From Comamonadaceae bacterium (GTDB lineage Bacteria > Pseudomonadota > Gammaproteobacteria > Burkholderiales > Burkholderiaceae_C), in contig CANCTD010000001.1 in the NCBI GenBank assembly GCA_947380945.1, positions 849-64,848 on the forward strand: a stretch of 64,000 nt of DNA. The letters run 5' to 3'. A program made the translations under genes and the position numbers. Below are positions 2,100 to 13,416 of the stretch, in pieces (position 1 is the stretch's first letter; each line of letters opens with the position of its first letter). The notes beneath the pieces were generated by a model that saw only the letters and a list, made by a program, of their open reading frames with translations, was not told the origin of the DNA and did not search any database.

Positions 2100-5000
2100 T
2101 CAGGACAACCATTTGTCAAGATAAGCCTGCTTGGCAATTTGTAACCGTTCCAGTTTTACTTGCTGTCGCTGCTTTTCAGCTTCAATATCGGTGGCCATTT
2201 TGCTCAGTTTCTTGACTTGGGAGCCGACATCGGGAACGGGAATCAGCATGACCTCACCGGGTTTGATGCGGGGCAGGCTGACGCCGCCCGTTTTTGCCTT
2301 GGCCTCTTCTACAAAGGTAGGGGCAAGCAACAAGTATTTCAGCAGCGTCGCTGGGATGCGCGGTTTGAGAACCAGAATTTCGGTGGAGCAGACACCATCG
2401 AAATCAGCAATCCAGACTTTGTTTAGGTAGGGGCGAAGTTTGCCGTACAACACGTCACCCTTGCGAAAGACATTCTTTGTGCTCTTAATCGTCGCGCCCT
2501 TGCACGGGCCAGTCCAGGTGCTTTCGCCAGTGCCTTCGGTGATGTGCTCAAGTCCGAGATAGTTGAAATCGGCGCTAGGTGCGTTGCCCGGATCGACACG
2601 TTCGCCCGACAGCGTACAGAAATCCCCAAGTGGACGACGTGTAGAGATAGCCAGCATCGCGGTGAAAAGTGGCTGCGCTATAGTTTGCACCCGCACCTTA
2701 CGGGCAGCCTCCAAAGATTCATATTTGCCTAGATGGCTGGCTACTGCCTGTTGTAAGGCGAGCGGCAATAGCGGGATGGTCACGTCACTGACTCGATCAA
2801 TATTCAAATTCTTGACGACTGGCCCCATCGCCTGTTCTGTAAACTGACTTTGTGAATGCTCACTTGACAGTACGTAGTACAGGTAGTCCCTGTCAATGTC
2901 AGACCGAATTTCGGATAAAACAAGCCATCCGTCATGAACACAACCGTTGATCTTTAGGATGTACGGCCTGCCAAAACTCATCGAATTTGAAATAATAAAG
3001 TCATCCGGCTGCACGGACTTGGACTTCTCCGCGCCGCTCATGGTGATCATCTCCGATGTGCTTTCTATGTATTTAGCTCCCGGCTTTACGTCGCCGATCT
3101 TTATCCAGTTGACACCATCAAGCGCCTTTGTGATGAAGCGATCTATTGGGCGAGGTGATGCGCCTCTCGAAATTTTTGCTGCATCGCTTAGTCGTATTAA
3201 CGGCCATCGCGTACTACGGGCTTTTTTTTTAACGCTTGTACCAATCGCTTTGTCGAAACGAACCTGATCAAAGCCTAACAAATCAGTCAGTGAAACGACA
3301 TTCACATAGTCGGTCAATTCTGTTGGCACGACTGGTGTTTCTCCAAGAAAGTTTTGGCGAATGAGGGTATTGATCTTGTTGGGGTCTGAGTCGTTGGTTT
3401 CGGAGTAGAGCGCCGTTTCAATTTGCCCAGACCCGGAAAGAATCTTTAGCCCTTCCGAGCCCTTTCGATTACTGAACTCGTAACCGAGAAACGCCTTTTC
3501 AGCGTTTTTGTCTGTTGGTGAATTGATCAGTACAACGCGCTGGTCGTTAACGAGGAAAAAGGTCAACATCTTTTCACCCTCTCGCCCACGGGCCCACACA
3601 CGGAACCGACTCTCCAACTGTACTGCTTGCTCTATCCTCGGCAGTGCCTTGAACTTCCTGTTTTTCTCGCGTAGCGCGCGAATCTCTGTCAGTTCGTCAA
3701 ACGCCTGGCGGTAGCTTGAAAGCAGAGTGTGTGCTGGCGCATGGGGATCTCCCCGCAGCAATGCCGAGAAAGTAGCAAGATCAACATTCCACACACTGCG
3801 GGCATAGAGTGCAAAAGCGTCTTCCTGTCCGGCTACGGTCATATCCCGCCAATCGCCGAAGTAGCTTTCTACCAGGCTGGCAATTCGCGCGTGTTCATCG
3901 TTCGCGCGCCTTTGCATGAACAGAATGACTGTATTCGTGCCGGTCGCCATGAAGGTGCCGCTGCCCATCACGGCAATGGCTTTGATTTGAAAATAGCGCA
4001 GCAATATGTCCCGTGCCGCTTCGTAGACACCACCGTTGGACAGAATGCTGGTTGGTAGCAAAAGACCGGTTACGCCACCGGGCTTGAGCACCTGTTTAGC
4101 CCGTTCTACAAACAGGCATTCAATCTCGCTGCTGGCATCAGTTAAGCGCGGCCAGAGGGTAAAAGATTTTTCTCCATGGCGAATGGTCTTTTTGCAGGCA
4201 CCTACGGAGTAAGGTGGGTTGGCCGCCACCACATCGAATTGCGGGTTGTCGCGTTCGCCGTCCGGCAGTGCTGTGTTGCGCAACCTTCCGGTGTACTCTT
4301 GGCTCAAGGCAAAGTTGTCCAACCCATCACCCAGGATCATGTTGGCTTCACCATCACCGTTCAAAAAGCAACTGACCTTCGCGGTCTTTGCCAGCCGGTA
4401 GTCCTTTTCAATGCCATAGACGAACTCATTGGCCCAGGCGTACTCTTCACGCCATTTGCGAAGGTTGCCCTTAAGCGCAGTTCGCATTTTGCTGCCGTCA
4501 ATGGTCTTAACGATGCGGTCAATTCGGTCCATGCCTTCAGTCATGAAATGCCCGCTGCCCGAGGCGTAATCCAAAAAGTAGGGCAGGAAGTTGGCATCGT
4601 TGGCCTTAATCTTGGCGGCAATGATGGCGCGCAATGGCAGGCTATCAATTAGGAACCGTGCAATAGGTATCGGGGTGAAAAATTGCCCGGCTTCCTGCTT
4701 GACGCTGGTGTTAAGCAGCAGCTCAAAAAAGTCACCCAAAAATTGCTGCTTGGAGGCATAGCGAAGCTTCTTGCCATGCAAAAGCCGGACTACTTCGCGC
4801 ACGATCTCTGCATTCGCGTTGAACGTTTTCTCGTCGAATACTTCTTTGAACGCGAATTCATTGTTCTTGAAGAGACGTAGCTCGGTGAAGATCGTATGCA
4901 GCGCCTGCCGGTCGGACTCTGTAACTGTGACCAGCAAGCGGCGGTCAATTTCGGCCTCGGAGTGGTCGGCGATCTCCATGCGCAGGTATTGGCTCATGCC

Positions 5001-5891
5001 CGCCTTGTAAAGGTCATTCAACCGGCTCAGGACGGTCTTTGCCGATTCACCGGCCTGCCATTGAAAATCCAGAGGTTCGTCGGCCTGCTTTTCTTCGTCC
5101 TGCACTTTGCAGATGAAAAGATTGAAAATCTTATTGAACGCATTGGGCTTGTCGGAAACGACGTACCGCCGCAGAATTTCAGCAAAGGCGTTGAATATGC
5201 GTCCACCGTCTTCCTGCTTCATGTCAACCAGATCGGCTTTGGTAAGACGCCGTTCTTGAATCTGATAGGGCTTGCCGTCAAATGCGCCGACTTCAAAACA
5301 TGACTTGTCCCATGACTCGAAAAGTTCGGCTACGGAATCACCCTCAAAAAACGAGGTATCGACCGCGCAGACTTTGGACTCGATGGCACTGGCAGAAAGC
5401 CGCGACGTATATAGGGCAATGAACTTTGCTGAACTGTCCTGTTGAAAGTAGCTCAACAACTGCCCCCCATCGTTGAATAGCTGGGTTTTTTCTTTCTCGA
5501 ACTCCGCACCCCATGTTTTGCATTCGACCATCAGGTAAGGCCTACCCTCCTGCAAAACGACTATATCTAGATAGCCGCCGGTATGGCCGAGTCGATATTC
5601 CTTTTCCAGAACAAGAGAATCCGGTGTGTAGCCCTGTGCCAGCAAGCGGTCAACGCATTCGAGCACAACCAGCGATTCGGATTGAGAGAGGTTTTGTGTT
5701 GATGTCCGGCCAGCGTTGCTTTTAATTGCGCTGCCGTAATCGATACGGCAATCGGCTGCTGTCCTGCCAAGCGCGATGCTGATGCTGTGCTTAAACGCCG
5801 AATAGGTCTTTGACCATTGCCCGCTTTTGCCGTCAACAGGTGCAAAACCCATAGCCTGCAAGGTGTTCTTGATTGTGTCGATGGATGCCAT
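2100..5891 (-). CDS. Single-chain restriction-modification enzyme (endonuclease + N6-adenine methyltransferase + two-TRD specificity domain), Type IIB/IIG-like
   Basis: N-terminal PD-(D/E)xK-like LEKEY..YLDIVV..MVECKTWG; MTase motifs GQFFTP, DYASGSGHF, NPPY; two HsdS-like TRDs (WPLIRLSDAAKISRGASPRPI; RRPLGDFCTLSGERVDP) each followed by a helical region; no helicase motifs. Confidence 0.9.
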   Translation of the reverse strand: MASIDTIKNTLQAMGFAPVDGKSGQWSKTYSAFKHSISIALGRTAADCRIDYGSAIKSNAGRTSTQNLSQSESLVVLECVDRLLAQGYTPDSLVLEKEYRLGHTGGYLDIVVLQEGRPYLMVECKTWGAEFEKEKTQLFNDGGQLLSYFQQDSSAKFIALYTSRLSASAIESKVCAVDTSFFEGDSVAELFESWDKSCFEVGAFDGKPYQIQERRLTKADLVDMKQEDGGRIFNAFAEILRRYVVSDKPNAFNKIFNLFICKVQDEEKQADEPLDFQWQAGESAKTVLSRLNDLYKAGMSQYLRMEIADHSEAEIDRRLLVTVTESDRQALHTIFTELRLFKNNEFAFKEVFDEKTFNANAEIVREVVRLLHGKKLRYASKQQFLGDFFELLLNTSVKQEAGQFFTPIPIARFLIDSLPLRAIIAAKIKANDANFLPYFLDYASGSGHFMTEGMDRIDRIVKTIDGSKMRTALKGNLRKWREEYAWANEFVYGIEKDYRLAKTAKVSCFLNGDGEANMILGDGLDNFALSQEYTGRLRNTALPDGERDNPQFDVVAANPPYSVGACKKTIRHGEKSFTLWPRLTDASSEIECLFVERAKQVLKPGGVTGLLLPTSILSNGGVYEAARDILLRYFQIKAIAVMGSGTFMATGTNTVILFMQRRANDEHARIASLVESYFGDWRDMTVAGQEDAFALYARSVWNVDLATFSALLRGDPHAPAHTLLSSYRQAFDELTEIRALREKNRKFKALPRIEQAVQLESRFRVWARGREGEKMLTFFLVNDQRVVLINSPTDKNAEKAFLGYEFSNRKGSEGLKILSGSGQIETALYSETNDSDPNKINTLIRQNFLGETPVVPTELTDYVNVVSLTDLLGFDQVRFDKAIGTSVKKKARSTRWPLIRLSDAAKISRGASPRPIDRFITKALDGVNWIKIGDVKPGAKYIESTSEMITMSGAEKSKSVQPDDFIISNSMSFGRPYILKINGCVHDGWLVLSEIRSDIDRDYLYYVLSSEHSQSQFTEQAMGPVVKNLNIDRVSDVTIPLLPLALQQAVASHLGKYESLEAARKVRVQTIAQPLFTAMLAISTRRPLGDFCTLSGERVDPGNAPSADFNYLGLEHITEGTGESTWTGPCKGATIKSTKNVFRKGDVLYGKLRPYLNKVWIADFDGVCSTEILVLKPRIPATLLKYLLLAPTFVEEAKAKTGGVSLPRIKPGEVMLIPVPDVGSQVKKLSKMATDIEAEKQRQQVKLERLQIAKQAYLDKWLS

Positions 5892-6167
5892 CGTTCATCT
5901 CACCTGGCTATCTTTGTTGTCTGCCGCTTGCAGCTGCGCTCCGCTTTGTGCCATTTTTTGCTTTACTTCTATTAGGACAAAAGGCTGTGTCTCCTGCTTG
6001 CCCAAATTAGCACCGCTCAGCCTTGAGCTTGATGCCCGCCAAAAACCCAATTGACAGCCCCATCTGAGCAGTCATCCGAAAAAAATCCTCATGAACCTGT
6101 TAATTCTTACGAGTTATTCCAAGTTTACTTGCAAAATATCGGTCTTTTTGCTCAAAAAAGGATCCAC

Positions 6168-7202
6168 ATGGCACACAACATCGGGCGTATGTTCTATTTC
6201 GGCGAAACACCTTGGCACGAGCTTGGCACCAAGCTCGACAAGCCAGCGACCCTGGAACAGGCTTTAAGCGCGGGTGGGCTGGACTGGACGGTGAGCATGC
6301 AGCCGCTGGTGCTGGCTGGGGAGCACCAGTCCGCAGTGCCACAGCGCCTGGCAATTGTCCGTAATGACGTGCTGCCCGGCCAACCCGGTCGGGTGCTGGG
6401 TGCAGTTCACCCAAACTTCAAAGTGCTGCAAAACCGCGACGGTGCTTCGTTGTTTGATTCATTGTTTGGCAAGGGCGCGGAGGTCTATCACACCGGCGGC
6501 TACCTAAAAAGGGGCGAAGTGGTCTGGCTAATGGCCAAACTGCCAAAGGGGATCGTCCTGCACGGCGAAGACAAGCTGGATACCTACCTGCTTTTCTCCA
6601 ACAGCCACGATGGCACATTGCCAATTGACATCCGTTTGACCACAGTGCGCGTCGTCTGCAACAACACCTTGACCCTTGCACTACGGAAGAAAAACCAGGC
6701 CCATGTTTTCCGCCGTGGTCACAGTGGCAACTACCAGGTCCTCAAAGCCGACGCTGAAGCATTCTTCAAGTCCATTTTGGCCCAGCAAGACGAAACGCAA
6801 GTGGTCATGGAAAAGCTGGTGCAGGCAGGGTGTAACGATGATGCCTTTGCCGCATTCTTAAAGCTGCTACTGCCTGACCCCACCCGGCCCGCCACAGCCA
6901 ACACGAACAAGGCAGTTGAGCGCGGGTTTGATACCCGGACCGCCACCATTACGGAACAGCGCGATCAAATCATGGCGGTACACCTAAACGGACATAAAGT
7001 AGCCGGTCAGTCAAACGTGGTTATTTCTCCAGCAGAAAAGACTTGGTGGGGTGGCTTGAACTCGATCACAGCATGGGTTGACCACGTCCGTGAAGTTGAT
7101 GGTGATCGCTATGCCAATGCCATCTTTGGCGGTGGGGATCGACTGAAAACGGTTGCGTATCAAAAAATACTGAATGAGGCCAGGGCATTTGAAAAGGTTT
7201 GA
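6168..7202 (+). CDS. DUF932 family phage/plasmid-like protein
   Basis: MAHN..ETPWHELG..AGGLDWTV, YLLFSNSHDG, TTVRVVCNNTL motifs; ATG at 6168 after an AAGGA SD preferred to the TTG at 6051. Confidence 0.85.
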   Translation: MAHNIGRMFYFGETPWHELGTKLDKPATLEQALSAGGLDWTVSMQPLVLAGEHQSAVPQRLAIVRNDVLPGQPGRVLGAVHPNFKVLQNRDGASLFDSLFGKGAEVYHTGGYLKRGEVVWLMAKLPKGIVLHGEDKLDTYLLFSNSHDGTLPIDIRLTTVRVVCNNTLTLALRKKNQAHVFRRGHSGNYQVLKADAEAFFKSILAQQDETQVVMEKLVQAGCNDDAFAAFLKLLLPDPTRPATANTNKAVERGFDTRTATITEQRDQIMAVHLNGHKVAGQSNVVISPAEKTWWGGLNSITAWVDHVREVDGDRYANAIFGGGDRLKTVAYQKILNEARAFEKV

Positions 7203-7259
7203 GCGGCGCTTCAATCGATGCACGGTCGCCAGCGCTGTACAACATTTGGAGATGACGGT

Positions 7260-7574
7260 ATGGCCGAGACAAACCCGACGACCATTTTTCTGACCAGCGA
7301 ACCAGAAAGCGCTTCGGTGCGGATTTATCAATGCCAAAAGAGATGGGAAGAATTGCAATCGTCAGGACGCGCAGGTGTGCGGTACTGCGACCACTGTCAC
7401 CAAAAAGTGCATCGCGTGGTCGATGCTGATGGTTTTGAGCGCTCTGTGGCCCGCGCGCAGTGCGTCATGGTTGCCGGGCTTGATCCTGTCGACAAGTCGC
7501 AGAAACTGTATGTGGGCAAACCGGGTGGGGTTAGTTATGCGGTGTATGCCGCGCTGCCCGTGCAGGACGACTGA
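7260..7574 (+). CDS. Small Cys/His-rich hypothetical protein (putative Zn-binding)
   Basis: CQKRWEEL..RYCDHCHQKVH..C pattern; GGAGA SD before ATG 7260; co-directional with the DUF932 gene. Confidence 0.65.
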   Translation: MAETNPTTIFLTSEPESASVRIYQCQKRWEELQSSGRAGVRYCDHCHQKVHRVVDADGFERSVARAQCVMVAGLDPVDKSQKLYVGKPGGVSYAVYAALPVQDD

Positions 7575-7973
7575 GTGCATTGATTCTGGTTGCACGGCAT
7601 GGCCCACAACTTCAGGTCGCTTGAGTTGCGCTTACCAGAGAGCGTCTTTGGCCTATCTGCCCGTCTACTGTGGGAGCATACCGAATTGGGTCAGATCAAT
7701 GTGCTCGGACATGCCACCAGCGGCCGACCAGGTCACAACGATCCCATTCCAAGTTTTTATCGGTTAGAATTTTTTTGCGTCCCCCATCACCGGGCAGCCC
7801 AGCCAATCGCGGCTGGAACGATTCGGTGATAAGGGCCGCTCAAATTTTTTTCGGTTTGAATTTTTCTAATTCCCGGTTTATTCTGAAGCGCCGTTTCGGG
7901 CAATTGCCGCCCGACCGATGTTGCAAAGATAGCCGGGAATCCTTTTTTGCGGTCAAAGTAGCGCATCAAACTG

Positions 7974-8543
7974 TCAAGCAGCACCCGCCGAAGAGATAAA
8001 TTGCGCACAAATCCGCCATTCGCCCATCGCCGGAACCGTTTGGCCACTTCCGGGGGACAAGCAGGTGAACCCAGCGCTCAGGTTTGCGCAGTCGCGGCAC
8101 TGCACCCTTACGGTTTGATTGGGGTTGTCGGGAGGGCTTATCTCTAGCAGTTGAGTCACTAGCCCTGGTGCTGCTTTCAAATTCACATCCGTGCCAAGAT
8201 ACCAACGGTTTTTAACGGAATCCGTAGGGTTTGGTTTGCGAACTCGCCCCCGACCACCTAACTTCCCGTTTTCCCCCGACTTCTGTTTACCAGCGTCACT
8301 TAAAGGTCCAGTCGATAAGCCTCCGTGCAGTTTGCAACGGCCAGATTCGTAAAGGTCTGTGCGACTACACGGTTGACCAGATCGGGTTTTGGCACCACAG
8401 GTCAAGTCGCGCAAGGCGGCCGGTAGAGGCGGATATGGGCGGTTCTTCGTCAAAGTCGTACTTTGAGTGTGCTCTCGATAGCCCTGCCAATAGTCCCGAT
8501 ATGCCTTCCGTAAGGAGGCATCCGAAATATTCTGATCGCTCAT
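7974..8543 (-). CDS. HGGxSTG domain protein with an extra C-terminal Cys4 cluster
   Basis: CGAKTRSGQPC..GRCKLHGGLSTGP; C-terminal CRDC..C..C; ATGA overlap with the upstream gene. Confidence 0.8.
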   Translation of the reverse strand: MSDQNISDASLRKAYRDYWQGYREHTQSTTLTKNRPYPPLPAALRDLTCGAKTRSGQPCSRTDLYESGRCKLHGGLSTGPLSDAGKQKSGENGKLGGRGRVRKPNPTDSVKNRWYLGTDVNLKAAPGLVTQLLEISPPDNPNQTVRVQCRDCANLSAGFTCLSPGSGQTVPAMGEWRICAQFISSAGAA

Positions 8544-8896
8544 GGTGCACCCTCAGAATAGGCCCGCCATAACGCCATGCCAGCACCACAGCGCAAACCA
8601 TATCGGCTGCCGCGCCCAGCGGCGATGCAAGTGGGGCAGCTGAAATGGTGGGCTTGGTAGGCGGCATCCAGCACGCTCCAACTGGCGAGCTCCGGGACTG
8701 CGGCCTCGGCCTGGACATGGGCTGGGCCTGCGGGCTCAGCGCGGAGCGCATTTACCAATGCCGCCCGGTGCTGACGTAACCGATCCAGCCAGAGCGTTAC
8801 GGATTGGCGGGGCCCGCATGCCTTGACTTTCCCGCCCACCAAGCGAAGCGCAACGCCCGATTCCTGCGCCTGGCGGATCAGTGCTTGCGGGCTCAC
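8540..8896 (-). CDS. Hypothetical satellite protein (TubC N-terminal docking-like domain + HHxxCxxC..C cluster)
   Basis: Translationally coupled (ATGA overlaps) between the helicase and HGGxSTG genes; GVALRLVGGKVKACGP..LRQHRAALVNAL pattern; HHFSCPTC..RC. Confidence 0.7.
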   Translation of the reverse strand: MSPQALIRQAQESGVALRLVGGKVKACGPRQSVTLWLDRLRQHRAALVNALRAEPAGPAHVQAEAAVPELASWSVLDAAYQAHHFSCPTCIAAGRGSRYGLRCGAGMALWRAYSEGAP

Positions 8897-10182
8897 AACT
8901 CCACCTCGATTACCTCATTCCTATCCGGGCCAACCGTCGAAGATTCCGAAAATTCCACTTTTTTAGATGGGAAATCTTCGGAACCTTCGGGCGATTGGGA
9001 ATCTTCGCAGGGTAATGCCATGTCAGTCCCGCCTGGTAAACGCCAATACCAACCACCGCGCATACCGTCTTTTTTTCGAGCGATGTTGAGCTTCTTGGAT
9101 GCAGTCCAAATTTGCTTCTTGGTAAACCCGGCATCTTTCAGCGGCTGGGTGGCCAGCTTCTCGGAAGTCCAACAATCTACCGTCAGCTCGGCCTGGAGCA
9201 AACTCACAGCATTAGCGTGGTCGGCGCCGTCCTGGCCCTGCACCGGGTCGGTCAGAAGGTCTTGGGCGGAGCCCTCTACCGCTTGGCCCCATTCGATACG
9301 GCTGGCATCAATACCGGGCAGCGCATTCACTTGGGCCAAGTGGTATTCAAACCCGCCGTTGTCTGGCCCGATGTTGGACTTGCCGCGCGCCAAAATGCGT
9401 TTATCGGTGCCGTCCTCACTTTTGACTCGCGCTGCCACCAGCACCACACGTGCAACAGCGGTGAACGCGATGCTTCCAATGACCCGCTGCGCCGGGTCAG
9501 AGCCCTGACCCCCTTTAGACAGATGGGTAATGCCCAACAACGCCGCGTTGATCTGTGTGGCTAAGTCAACCAAGGGTTGCAGGCCACGGCGTACCTCGGT
9601 GTTCTTGTGGCTGTCACCGGCCACAGCGGTCGATACCGGGTCGATCACGATCATGCGCACACTACCGATTTGCTCGATAGCTTCTTTCAAAGTGCGCGTG
9701 TCGATGGACGGGTCAAACGGTCTGATCCCCTTACCCGTGCGCATGCCGTTGACAAAGTGGACACGGCTACGGTCTGCACCGGCGGCGATCAGGCGTGGCA
9801 GCAGGGTGTCGGTGTAGTCATCCTCACCACTCCAGATTAGTACCTGGCCCGCCTCGCAACTGGTCCCGTCCGGCCAGCGCCCGCCGATGGTGACGGTGGC
9901 CGCCAGGCCCATGGCGATGGTGGTTTTTCCCTGCCCCGGTGCACCCGCTAACAGGTGGAACTTGCCCAGCGCCAGCCAGTCGGACCAGAGCCATTGCACG
10001 GGCTCTGGCGTAAGGTCTGCACCGCAAGTCAGCACCACAGTGCCCTTGGAAAGTGATTCAGTACCAACTTGGCCGCTGCCCTTAGAAGATCGCTTGTTAG
10101 CAGCTATTGAATTTCCAGGGAAGGCGAAGGCTACGTCGTCATCAAGACTGGTAGCCATGTGTTCATACTCTCGTGAATTCAT
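8893..10182 (-). CDS. AAA/RecA-family RepA-type replicative helicase
   Basis: VQWLW, Walker A GAPGQGKTT, SGEDD, Walker B MIVIDP, ITHLSK, GSIAFTAVAR, KSNIGP. Confidence 0.85.
   Translation of the reverse strand: MNSREYEHMATSLDDDVAFAFPGNSIAANKRSSKGSGQVGTESLSKGTVVLTCGADLTPEPVQWLWSDWLALGKFHLLAGAPGQGKTTIAMGLAATVTIGGRWPDGTSCEAGQVLIWSGEDDYTDTLLPRLIAAGADRSRVHFVNGMRTGKGIRPFDPSIDTRTLKEAIEQIGSVRMIVIDPVSTAVAGDSHKNTEVRRGLQPLVDLATQINAALLGITHLSKGGQGSDPAQRVIGSIAFTAVARVVLVAARVKSEDGTDKRILARGKSNIGPDNGGFEYHLAQVNALPGIDASRIEWGQAVEGSAQDLLTDPVQGQDGADHANAVSLLQAELTVDCWTSEKLATQPLKDAGFTKKQIWTASKKLNIARKKDGMRGGWYWRLPGGTDMALPCEDSQSPEGSEDFPSKKVEFSESSTVGPDRNEVIEVEL
8938..9007. repeat. Five 10-bp iteron-like repeats (consensus CGAAGATTCC) in opposite orientations around an AT-rich spacer; candidate replication origin
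   Basis: Forward copies 8938-8947 and 8947-8956; reverse copies 8971-8980, 8980-8989 and 8998-9007; spacer ACTTTTTTAGATGG. Confidence 0.65.
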
Positions 10183-10643
10183 GCGAAGGCCTCCACCAGT
10201 CGGTTGATGCGATTGACTGCCACCATCAGACGTGCCCGGTCTGTATCGGTCAGCACCAGACCGCTCGCCACATTGCCCGCAGCGACAGCCGCCAGCGTAG
10301 ATTCAAACGCCATCACCGACAGGGCCAGGCGCGGGCTCAGTGGCGTGGGTTTGGTTTGTACCTGCGGGCGGTCATCCTCCACCCAGCAGCCCAATGCTTT
10401 CGCAGCTTCGACAAACTCGCGACCACCGACCCTGATCTCATAGGCCAGCACATCGCCGCCTTTCGCCCCGCAGCTCATGCACACCCATGCGCCGGTGGCG
10501 ACGTTGACACGCATGGAGTCCGAGCCGCCGTGAAAGTTGCAGGTGGTGGTTCTCCACTTGGCAGAGCGTGGGCCTTTTAGCTGCAAGCCCTGATTTTCAA
10601 AATAAGTCGTTGCATCGGGTATTCGGGTGCGGTCAAAGCTCAT
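10179..10643 (-). CDS. Stand-alone CHC2 (DnaG-type) zinc-finger protein
   Basis: CNFH..SMRVN..WVCMSCGAKGGDVL..FVEAAKALG; ATG at 10643 overlaps the end of alpA; no TOPRIM domain. Confidence 0.82.
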   Translation of the reverse strand: MSFDRTRIPDATTYFENQGLQLKGPRSAKWRTTTCNFHGGSDSMRVNVATGAWVCMSCGAKGGDVLAYEIRVGGREFVEAAKALGCWVEDDRPQVQTKPTPLSPRLALSVMAFESTLAAVAAGNVASGLVLTDTDRARLMVAVNRINRLVEAFA

Positions 10644-10893
10644 AACGCACCGCCGATCCCAGGTCAGCGCGCTTGGCATGTAAAGCCCTTACCAGTTCGC
10701 GTATCTGCTCGTCGGACTTGCCAGCGATACGCGCCGTGATGATTGCGTCTACTTCGTAATCAGGCCACCCTCTTGCACGCTGCCCAATTGCTACGCCGGT
10801 TGTGAAAAGCCCGTCCCGTATTGCGTTGTAGATGCTGGCGTCCGAACGGTGTCCAGCCCGGCATTTGACGGCTGGCATTCTGAGAATCTGCAT
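10633..10893 (-). CDS. alpA: AlpA family regulator / excisionase
   Basis: ILRMPAVK..SDASIYNAIRDGLFTTGVAIGQRARGWPDYEVDAI, typical AlpA signature and position. Confidence 0.88.
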   Translation of the reverse strand: MQILRMPAVKCRAGHRSDASIYNAIRDGLFTTGVAIGQRARGWPDYEVDAIITARIAGKSDEQIRELVRALHAKRADLGSAVRYEL

Positions 10894-10979
10894 ACCTGTA
10901 TCCCCCTATCCCGCCTTGGCGGTTGTTGCGATAGAGGAATTGTCAGAATCGGTAAAGCATCCGTCACTGACGATAAGTA

Positions 10980-11804
10980 TCAGATCTTTTTTGTCAGTGG
11001 CCGACTACCGGCCGCTAGCTCTTGCGTCAACTCATCCAAATGCTCCACATAGTCATCTAAGCTCAACTTCGGCACCGGAACACGAGGTTCATACATTGAT
11101 CTGTAGAACTCCCATGCTCCAGGCTCACTGCCCGTCTTCCGCATAATCTGATTCCATTGTCGATTTCTCAATCGATCTTCAACTGTTTCTCCAACGATCT
11201 TTTTGTGCGGTGCGATTAACCGCATGATGTGGCGTTCGCTTTTGTGGAACTCTTTACTAAGCAGCTCGACGGCCTCCGGATACCCGATGCCGGAATCCAT
11301 CATTTCCCAGTATCGTTCGGCAGCATTGCGCCCCACTGAATCCAGTTCCTTCCGCTTTGGACGACCCAACTTTTCCATTGGCAATGCGCCGAACATCACT
11401 GCCTTAGCTACTATCAAATTGATCAAATTTTGAAACTTTGGATCGATTGCATCACCCCACACAACCAATCCTGCAAAGTGGCTTAGGGCCTCAAGCTCTG
11501 CACCGTTCTCTTGCGTCGCAACGCGCTGAATCAGCTTTTTTTCTTGGCTTTCGATCGTCACCGTTATTTTTTTTCGTCGCGTTTTTCCCTGATGCAAATT
11601 CCGAAGGTACTTGTGTAATTTTTGTTTGTCTGCAAGTGTCAGGCTGTCCAGGGCACTCGCCTTCGGCACTCCGGCATCCCGCAATTGTGTCAATAGCGAC
11701 TCCGGACTTTCCCCTAACTCCAGAGCAAAGTCGGCGACAGACTGCAGCTCGCGATCCGCTTCGATCTGCCGCAACCGTTGCTGATATTCGGTTATTTTTG
11801 ACAT
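10980..11804 (-). CDS. Putative island regulator: IF2 N-terminal-like domain fused to a GRPK + HTH-like C-terminal region
   Basis: ATG 11804 with AGGGGG SD; residues ~22-83 follow the betaproteobacterial IF2 N-terminus pattern; GRPKRK..YPEAVELLSKEFHKSERHIMRLI is HTH-like; lies between int and alpA. Confidence 0.75.
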   Translation of the reverse strand: MSKITEYQQRLRQIEADRELQSVADFALELGESPESLLTQLRDAGVPKASALDSLTLADKQKLHKYLRNLHQGKTRRKKITVTIESQEKKLIQRVATQENGAELEALSHFAGLVVWGDAIDPKFQNLINLIVAKAVMFGALPMEKLGRPKRKELDSVGRNAAERYWEMMDSGIGYPEAVELLSKEFHKSERHIMRLIAPHKKIVGETVEDRLRNRQWNQIMRKTGSEPGAWEFYRSMYEPRVPVPKLSLDDYVEHLDELTQELAAGSRPLTKKI

Positions 11805-11908
11805 GCGCCCCCTGCTACACCCCGATAAGGACCAGCGCCGCCAGATCCGGGTGTTCCGGTTTTCACCACGAGAAATTTGTCCGTGGCTAGGTGTGGTCAA
11901 AAACCGTT

Positions 11909-13147
11909 CTAAGCCGCCTTCATCTGAATCACATCCGCCCCCTGCGCCAGCTTGTCCAGGTAGTCAGCCCAGGCCTGCATCATGGTCGTGCGCTGTTTTA
12001 AGTATTGGGTTCGGTTGTAGGCGCGGCCGTTGGCGTCCTTCACCGCGTGGGCTAGCTGTGCCTCAATCACCAGCGGGTCGATATTCAATTCCTCTGCCAG
12101 TAGCGTGCGCGCCGTGGCTCTAAACCCATGCACGCTCTGTGCATCCGGGCCATAGCCCAAAGTCAGCAGCGCCGCGCGCAGCGTGTTGTCACTGATTGGT
12201 CTGGCGTGGCTGCGCTCACCGCGAAAGCACAGCGCGCCGTTGCCGGTGATGGGGTGTAACTCCCGCAGAATATTCACCGCCTGCCTAGGCAGTGGCACCA
12301 GGTGCGGGTCGCCGTTGCGCTTGCCGTCTACGCTGCGTTTCATGCGCGCCGCCGGGATAGTCCACAGTGCCGCGTCCAGGTCAAACTCTGCCCAGGCCGC
12401 CGCCCGCAGCTCGCCGGGCCGCTGAAACAGCATGGGTGCAAGTTGCAGCGCCGCGCGCACAATCGGCCCGCCCTGATAGCCCCGAATCACCCGCACCAGC
12501 GCGCCCAGCTTGGCCGGGTCGGTAATGGCTGCAAAGTGCTTGCCGTGGTGGGGCTTGAGTGCGCCGCGAATATCGGCGCTCACATCGCGTGGCGTGCGCC
12601 CGGTGGCTACCCCATAGCGCCATACCTGCCCGGCGGTTGTAAGTACCCTGTGCGCCACGTCAAGGGCTCCGCGTTCCTCTACCCTGCGCACCACGGCCAA
12701 CAGCTCTATGGCCTCTATGGTGGCAATGTCACGGCTGCCCAAAAAAGGGAACAGGTCTTTTTCTAGGTTGCGCTTCTCGCGGATAGCGTAGTGGCCGCTC
12801 CAGCTCTCACGCTTGAGGTCGAACCATTCCAGCGCGGTCGCCTGAAAAGTGTTCCCCGCCGGGGTCAGCTTCTTTAGCTTTGCGACCTTGCGTGCCAGCA
12901 CGGGGTCGATGCCTTCGGACTTTTGCGCTTTGGCAGCATCGCGCGCCTTGCGAACAGCCTTCAGGGTGACCTCTGGGTAGCTGCCGAGCGCCAGCCGCCC
13001 CTCTTTACCGTCCGAGTAGGTTTTCCAGAACCAGCGCTTCGACCCAGCGGGGCTTACCTCAAGGTACAGGCCGTTTGAATCGGTTAATCGAGCCCGCTGC
13101 TTATCCGGTGGACAGCTAGCGTTCTTGCAATCGGCATCGGTCAACAT
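11909..13147 (-). CDS. P4/CP4-like tyrosine integrase with N-terminal arm-binding domain
   Basis: MLTD..DSNGLYLEVSPAGSKRW..LGSYPEVTL arm domain; catalytic RPGELR, HGFRATART, QLAH, AYNR; GGAGA SD before ATG 13147. Confidence 0.95.
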   Translation of the reverse strand: MLTDADCKNASCPPDKQRARLTDSNGLYLEVSPAGSKRWFWKTYSDGKEGRLALGSYPEVTLKAVRKARDAAKAQKSEGIDPVLARKVAKLKKLTPAGNTFQATALEWFDLKRESWSGHYAIREKRNLEKDLFPFLGSRDIATIEAIELLAVVRRVEERGALDVAHRVLTTAGQVWRYGVATGRTPRDVSADIRGALKPHHGKHFAAITDPAKLGALVRVIRGYQGGPIVRAALQLAPMLFQRPGELRAAAWAEFDLDAALWTIPAARMKRSVDGKRNGDPHLVPLPRQAVNILRELHPITGNGALCFRGERSHARPISDNTLRAALLTLGYGPDAQSVHGFRATARTLLAEELNIDPLVIEAQLAHAVKDANGRAYNRTQYLKQRTTMMQAWADYLDKLAQGADVIQMKAA

Positions 13148-13162
13148 GGGGTTCTCCAGTGA

Positions 13163-13229
13163 AAACCGGGGAACAATCTCCAAAAAATCCCGTTTACCCC
13201 GGTTTGTTCCCCGGTATGTTCCCCGGTTT
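13163..13229. repeat. Arm-type repeats: one inverted and three tandem copies of the GTTCCCCGGTTT-like 12-mer upstream of int
   Basis: AAACCGGGGAAC 13163-13174; TTACCCCGGTTT, GTTCCCCGGTAT, GTTCCCCGGTTT 13194-13229. Confidence 0.8.
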
Positions 13230-13339: not shown

Positions 13340-13416
13340 TGGTCGGTGTGAAAGGATTCGAACCTTCGACCCCTTGCACCCCATGCAAGTGCGCTACCAG
13401 GCTGCGCCACACACCG
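13340..13416 (-). tRNA. tRNA-Pro(GGG)
   Basis: 77 nt CGGTGTG..CACACCG-ACCA; anticodon arm CTTGC-ATGGGGT-GCAAG; T-loop GGTTCGAATCC. Confidence 0.97.

Follow-up and report, generated by a model that had tools for sequence, protein, structure and literature searches.

How does a restriction enzyme made as one chain, with a single nuclease-methyltransferase (RM) part and two TRDs, provide an RM part for each TRD? Among two-gene Type IIB enzymes, BsaXI pairs each TRD with one RM in an (RM)2S heterotrimer (PMC11997821), whereas the 1 RM : 2 TRD imbalance of the single-chain enzymes has been called "a mystery" (PMC3874165) and "not entirely clear" (PMC4081073). The question arises at one gene in a 64,000-nt stretch of a Comamonadaceae contig (CANCTD010000001.1; hereafter the window), where an earlier note, made from the letters alone, had proposed that a run of nine A between methylase and specificity parts either supplies the second subunit by programmed recoding or serves as a phase-variation switch. 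The gene and its two parts are the following.

2100..5891, minus strand: single-chain nuclease-methyltransferase-specificity (RMS) gene, 1263 aa, Type IIB-like with the AloI/TstI layout, from its ORF and its Pfam, PDB and PADLOC matches
3231..5891, minus strand: R-M part, residues 1-887, with a D109..ECK125 nuclease-type motif, DYASGSG at 441, NPPY at 558, a helical knob and a fold match to the BsaXI RM chain
2100..3212, minus strand: S part, residues 894-1263, TRD1-CR1-TRD2-CR2, from PADLOC (Specificity_I, 894-1258) and the structure model

Domains, motifs, model and fold all place the protein among single-chain Type IIB enzymes of the AloI/TstI type. It carries the Pfam domains N6_Mtase, Methylase_S and HSDR_N_2, its best PDB match is RM.BsaXI (E 1.8e-50), and PADLOC assigns it to REase_MTase_IIG (E 2.7e-212). 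The structure model (mean pLDDT 89.7) has a helical insert at ~666-781 and two globular domains in S, each followed by a long helix (TRD+helix units); residues 875-897 form a coil that links the RM part to TRD1-CR1-TRD2-CR2. In fold comparison the RM part has the BsaXI RM chain as its top match and the S part matches type I S subunits. A knob domain and TRDs tethered via a flexible loop are described for the Type IIB architecture (PMC11997821), and the model contains both the knob and a TRD1-CR1-TRD2-CR2 array on such a loop. Length and order of parts (~1250 aa, R-M-TRD1-CR1-TRD2-CR2) are shared with AloI, PpiI, TstI and CjeI (PMC3874165, PMC4081073, PMC4027205), the motifs just upstream of the junction are common to TstI and the window's protein, and the RM chain is homologous to that of BsaXI and BcgI (PMC11997821), in which RM and S come from separate genes, whereas they are fused here.

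The coil linker is encoded across the run, and three features define the proposed recoding site.

3222..3230 (plus-strand T9), minus strand: A9 run, codons 888-890 (KKK), proposed slippage site in the RM/S coil linker; A9 or A10 in 126/158 loci
3214..3216, minus strand: TAG in the -1 frame, terminating the +1 A product at 892 aa; a -1-frame stop lies within 3 codons in 115/122 homologues
3197..3199, minus strand: TAA in the +1 frame, terminating the -1 A or +2 A product at 897 or 898 aa; a stop lies directly after the run in 96/122 homologues

Codons 887-891 read GTT AAA AAA AAA GCC on the sense strand, and both the position of the run between RM and TRD1 and the two truncated products that the earlier note had predicted are borne out by the sequence. 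One added A gives a chain ending in KKKSP (892 aa, 100.3 kDa) and one lost A a chain ending in KKKPVVRDGR (897 aa, 100.9 kDa), against 141.4 kDa for the full-length protein. Because the run lies inside the linker and either shift cuts the chain there, 2-6 residues ahead of the start of S, either product is a whole RM chain without S. No other A-run in the gene is longer than 6, and the 1.91-Mb genome has five A/T runs of 9, this one included. The use of AAA for all three lysines had also been called notable in a GC-rich context; the run is real, but that context was overstated, since the gene has 51.6% GC and 35 AAA to 50 AAG codons (41% AAA), and its own codon use gives AAA three times at a KKK with a chance of ~0.07. 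Nearby stops are likewise unremarkable by themselves in this gene: a stop follows within 3 codons at 16% of -1-frame positions and within 9 codons at 46% of +1-frame positions. With close stops common in the other frames and AAA and AAG mixed, the window alone proves little, and the case for more than chance comes from the homologues.

We read the junction DNA of 166 related loci, drawn from genomic, metagenomic and viral contig sequences, plus further loci, and counted run length at 158 distinct junctions; these sequences are related, so that counts overstate independence, and most of the loci are AT-rich. The longest A-run is A9 at 103 junctions, A10 at 23, A8 at 2 and A7 at 3, and none reaches 11 or more; elsewhere in the same homologous genes, 179,264 codons hold 10 A9 runs. 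Where the junction encodes KKK, it does so as three AAA codons in 110 of 121 cases, against 61.6 expected from each gene's codon use, and 9 more are AAA-AAA-AAG; mixed AAA/AAG codons here had been named as grounds for giving up the idea, and the alignment instead found run, length and the stops behind it conserved. AAA makes up 99, 97 and 94% of codons at the three junction Lys columns; for 13 conserved Lys columns elsewhere the share is 46-90%. When only rows more than 0.5 substitutions/site apart are retained, the first two codons are AAA in ~33/33 KKK junctions (21.5 expected). The run occurs in Bacteroidota, Campylobacterota, Spirochaetota, Fibrobacterota, Pseudomonadota and others, and its state changes 19 times on a 155-row tree. 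The homologue P0214 of Methanococcus maripaludis also has KKK at the junction, at the protein level.

The window's own clade is informative because AAA and AAG are near parity there. All 12 of its genes (AAA at 42-67% of lysines; identity to the window of 0.30-0.65 at four-fold sites) have A8-A10 at the junction, whereas of the 32 further columns that are Lys throughout, a single one uses AAA in every gene. If the third codon reads AAG, AAC or AAT, the base preceding the run is A in 10/10 junctions, as opposed to 13/110 otherwise, and this compensating shift, with the third-codon A lost and a preceding A gained, appears at 6-7 separate places on the tree; by this comparison, run length is kept while codon phase moves. 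Loci with a run shorter than 9 retain KKK in only 2 of 34, one of them the A8 allele. These patterns point to the run, not the lysines, as the selected item, and on the alignments the A-run is a real signal, evidently selected at the nucleotide level.

Codon choice behind the run follows the same direction. By synonymous resampling, the -1 A frame should stop directly behind the run in 48 ± 4 of 122 loci and does so in 96, and the +1 A frame should stop within 3 codons in 84 ± 4.5 and does so in 115; both shifted frames stop within 15 codons in 122/122. These stops arise because Val before A is encoded GTA or GTG (73/78, against 59% elsewhere) and Ile before GA is encoded ATT (67/71, against 57% elsewhere), and codon choice behind the run thus favors stops in both shifted frames. 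The stops seen in the window, ordinary for its gene alone, belong to a pattern enriched across homologues. Tails after the run in the window's clade (2 and 7 codons) are longer than in the main clade.

We consider the best reading to be transcriptional slippage giving RM + RMS, with a probability of about 0.6. With T9 as template, RNA polymerase would realign its 9-bp hybrid and produce mRNAs that differ in their number of A: those with 9 (or 9+3n) A would encode the 141-kDa RMS chain, and those with other counts would reach a stop in 2-8 codons and yield the complete 100-kDa R-M chain without S. The free RM chain would occupy the second TRD of RMS, giving from one gene the 1 RM : 1 TRD ratio of (RM)2S in BcgI and BsaXI. 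What is expected of such a site is found here, namely a coding-sequence tract of nine or more A/T whose length is conserved among homologues, stops near in both shifted frames, and a short product cut at a domain boundary. In vivo, bacterial RNA polymerase slips from a threshold of nine A upward (PMC5009743, PMC1088944). The closest parallel is Thermus thermophilus dnaX, in which gamma is made from the intact tau ORF by A9 slippage (PMC5009743, PMC1088944): it shares the intact ORF, the sense A9, the close stops in both shifted frames and a short product that lacks the C-terminal module, and in both cases the two chains would serve one complex. It belongs to another gene family, and slippage is demonstrated there (about 50%), whereas we infer it for the RMS genes. 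In the A11 slippage of Citrobacter rodentium tssM1 (PMC4256274), two length variants are likewise both needed in one complex, but the zero frame gives the short form. A reporter study in Escherichia coli counts against slippage, as the host polymerase showed only weak slippage on A-runs of no more than 8 and favored T-runs (PMC6260861). A promoter and terminator scan gave matches at chance level only.

Recoding of some kind into RM + RMS we regard as quite probable, and transcriptional slippage is favored over its ribosomal counterpart, in which the ribosome would make the same two products by -1 frameshifting on A_AAA_AAA or A_AAA_AAG, or by poly(A) sliding. An A_AAA_AAA heptamer does lie in -1 phase inside every run, and the -1-frame stop within 3 codons in 115/122 loci suits it. 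The E. coli dnaX frameshift relies on SD-like and hairpin stimulators. Neither kind is present here: an SD-like element upstream of the run is found at 0 of 121 junctions (10.8 expected), and folding of the homologous junctions gives no signal of a downstream hairpin (mean z -0.3). A heptamer moreover requires 7 A, yet the run is held at 9-10 with A7 and A8 rare, the strongest stop signal belongs to the other frame, and sliding in vitro is robust at A11 but slight at A9/A10 (PMC4363877), so that we consider a ribosomal origin unlikely. Replication slippage, by which the tract would toggle the system on and off between cells, is similarly unlikely. An A9 tract is mutable in principle and two alleles one A short exist (P0027 and P0028, the latter on 6 contigs), but phase variation would predict mixed lengths and frequent off alleles, whereas the 122 other loci whose run has 9 or more A all stay in frame through it (further loci likewise) and lengths are 9-10 only, with A10 arising from neighboring codons. 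The two short alleles stand among about 170 loci, a sample in which assemblies and contigs hide minor variants and queries slightly favor in-frame alleles. The window's protein is identical on 11 contigs, no indel at the run is listed for related-strain contigs from four studies, and conserved run length is a published criterion for transcriptional use (PMC1088944). Neither the exact RM/S boundary nor codon choice for stops in two frames is needed for switching, and the short alleles, in which an ATG overlaps the RM stop, may function as two-gene systems. The poly-G tracts of phase-variable Type IIG genes, such as those of Campylobacter jejuni NCTC11168, also lie within single-chain R-M genes, but they reportedly switch at the DNA level (PMC4889913), whereas here the base is A and length and frame are nearly invariant. 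Of the two possibilities raised in the earlier note, recoding is thus the one favored by conservation among homologues, and phase variation has become the less likely one because loci are in frame.

Two further explanations would make the short protein irrelevant or the run incidental. The junction could be a conserved DNA anchor for TRD-swapping recombination, or another DNA or RNA signal; S modules are far more variable than RM, and, beyond the stop-forming bases, some synonymous sites beside the run are biased as well (TCG at 884, AGT and AAG downstream of it; log-odds 1.5-2.1). Flanking synonymous sites nevertheless vary freely between clades (GCC CAT AGC against GTA AAA ATT) while the run stays constant, upstream synonymous sites are mostly at background, and an anchor gives no reason for a 9-A threshold or for the phase shift, all of which makes it quite improbable. 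Alternatively, KKK might be required in the protein, with AAA use reflecting codon bias or shared descent, since KKK is present in 85 of 120 top homologues and mean AAA use in the genes compared is 78%. This is very improbable and largely refuted: KKK outside the junction in the same genes is encoded AAA three times in 0 of 64 cases, KKK vanishes along with the run, KKN variants retain the run, and TstI is functional without KKK.

TstI also limits how far slippage giving RM + RMS can be extended. It has PKKG at the RM/S junction, so that a native A9 is impossible, and, studied from a codon-optimized gene, it works as a homotetramer of RMS chains (PMC4027205); hence the family as a whole does not require a free RM chain. 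About one-fifth of homologues lack the run yet have an intact fused ORF, among them Campylobacter-order loci of the SLNP type, and no other A/T run of 9 was found near the junction in run-less genes. Together with TstI, these fused genes make the run a trait of a subfamily, and the idea does not cover every single-chain IIB enzyme; the family probably has two solutions side by side. That a large cross-phylum set of such enzymes makes its own second RM subunit by slippage and acts as an RM:RMS heterodimer is plausible, at slightly less than even odds. Reviews point out that fusion leaves one TRD without RM (PMC3874165, PMC4081073); RM + RMS would rebuild the trimer and restore one RM per TRD, the ratio of BsaXI and BcgI, with the free chain stemming from recoding instead of a separate gene; the second TRD of RMS is the most likely place for it, though the short chain could merely tune expression. 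In four run-less Campylobacterales loci (L228, L229, L232 and L234), homopolymers of 9-11 lie within S, ~570-650 nt past the junction and near the TRD1/TRD2 boundary, and are possibly phase-variable tracts; L224 has a 13-mer homopolymer upstream.

The alleles one A short belong to two relatives (L001:6650-6700 and L005:2935-2985) and encode an 897-aa RM ORF followed by an S ORF; the S frame continues through the run without a stop, and the S ORF has an ATG that overlaps the RM stop (ATGGTAA). In Methylobacter MAGs the L001 allele lies beside tniB/tniQ; it is found on 6 contigs and retains A9. Such alleles may be off alleles, two-gene forms, or a mirror arrangement in which slippage yields the fusion, the zero frame giving the short form as in tssM1. 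Eight loci break 16-180 codons further into S, away from the run; in L034, L071, L074, L075, L091, L102 and L128 the run is intact and S is broken downstream by stops or frameshifts. L072, considered as an out-of-frame allele, was dropped, its gene being multiply broken. A plasmid search returned distant matches only.

In the literature, mainly that openly accessible, we found no paper on slippage or frameshifting at the RM/S junction of Type IIB or other restriction-modification genes; a frameshift at the C-REase fusion of another system was tested with a negative result (PMC3850674). A9 slippage would give a simple answer to the 1 RM : 2 TRD imbalance in the KKK subfamily, though not in TstI. 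Transcriptional slippage that truncates a protein was deliberately excluded from a genome survey as hard to detect (PMC1088944), and the RMS genes would add a widespread cellular example. Genes annotated with one product would then encode two, and codon-optimized clones of these enzymes would lose a subunit.

The RMS gene is carried by a low-GC element of ~11 kb whose integrase lies next to a tRNA gene.

11909..13183, minus strand: tyrosine integrase of the element, which adjoins tRNA-Pro (13340-13416)

The remaining cargo (6051-13183) has a satellite-like layout, with genes for a DUF932 protein, an AAA_25 helicase-like protein and a CHC2 zinc finger, an AlpA-like ORF and the integrase. Both ends of the element (1986-2012 and 13162-13229) carry a TTCCCCGGTTTG-type repeat, as direct copies and one 15-nt inverted pair, and these repeats are possible arm-type integrase sites. 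A near-copy of the tRNA-Pro 3' segment (13351-13364) lies at the far end (1913-1926) and is possibly a decayed att site. The second longest A-run of the element is an A8 at 11567-11574, on the sense strand of the ORF at 10980-11900.
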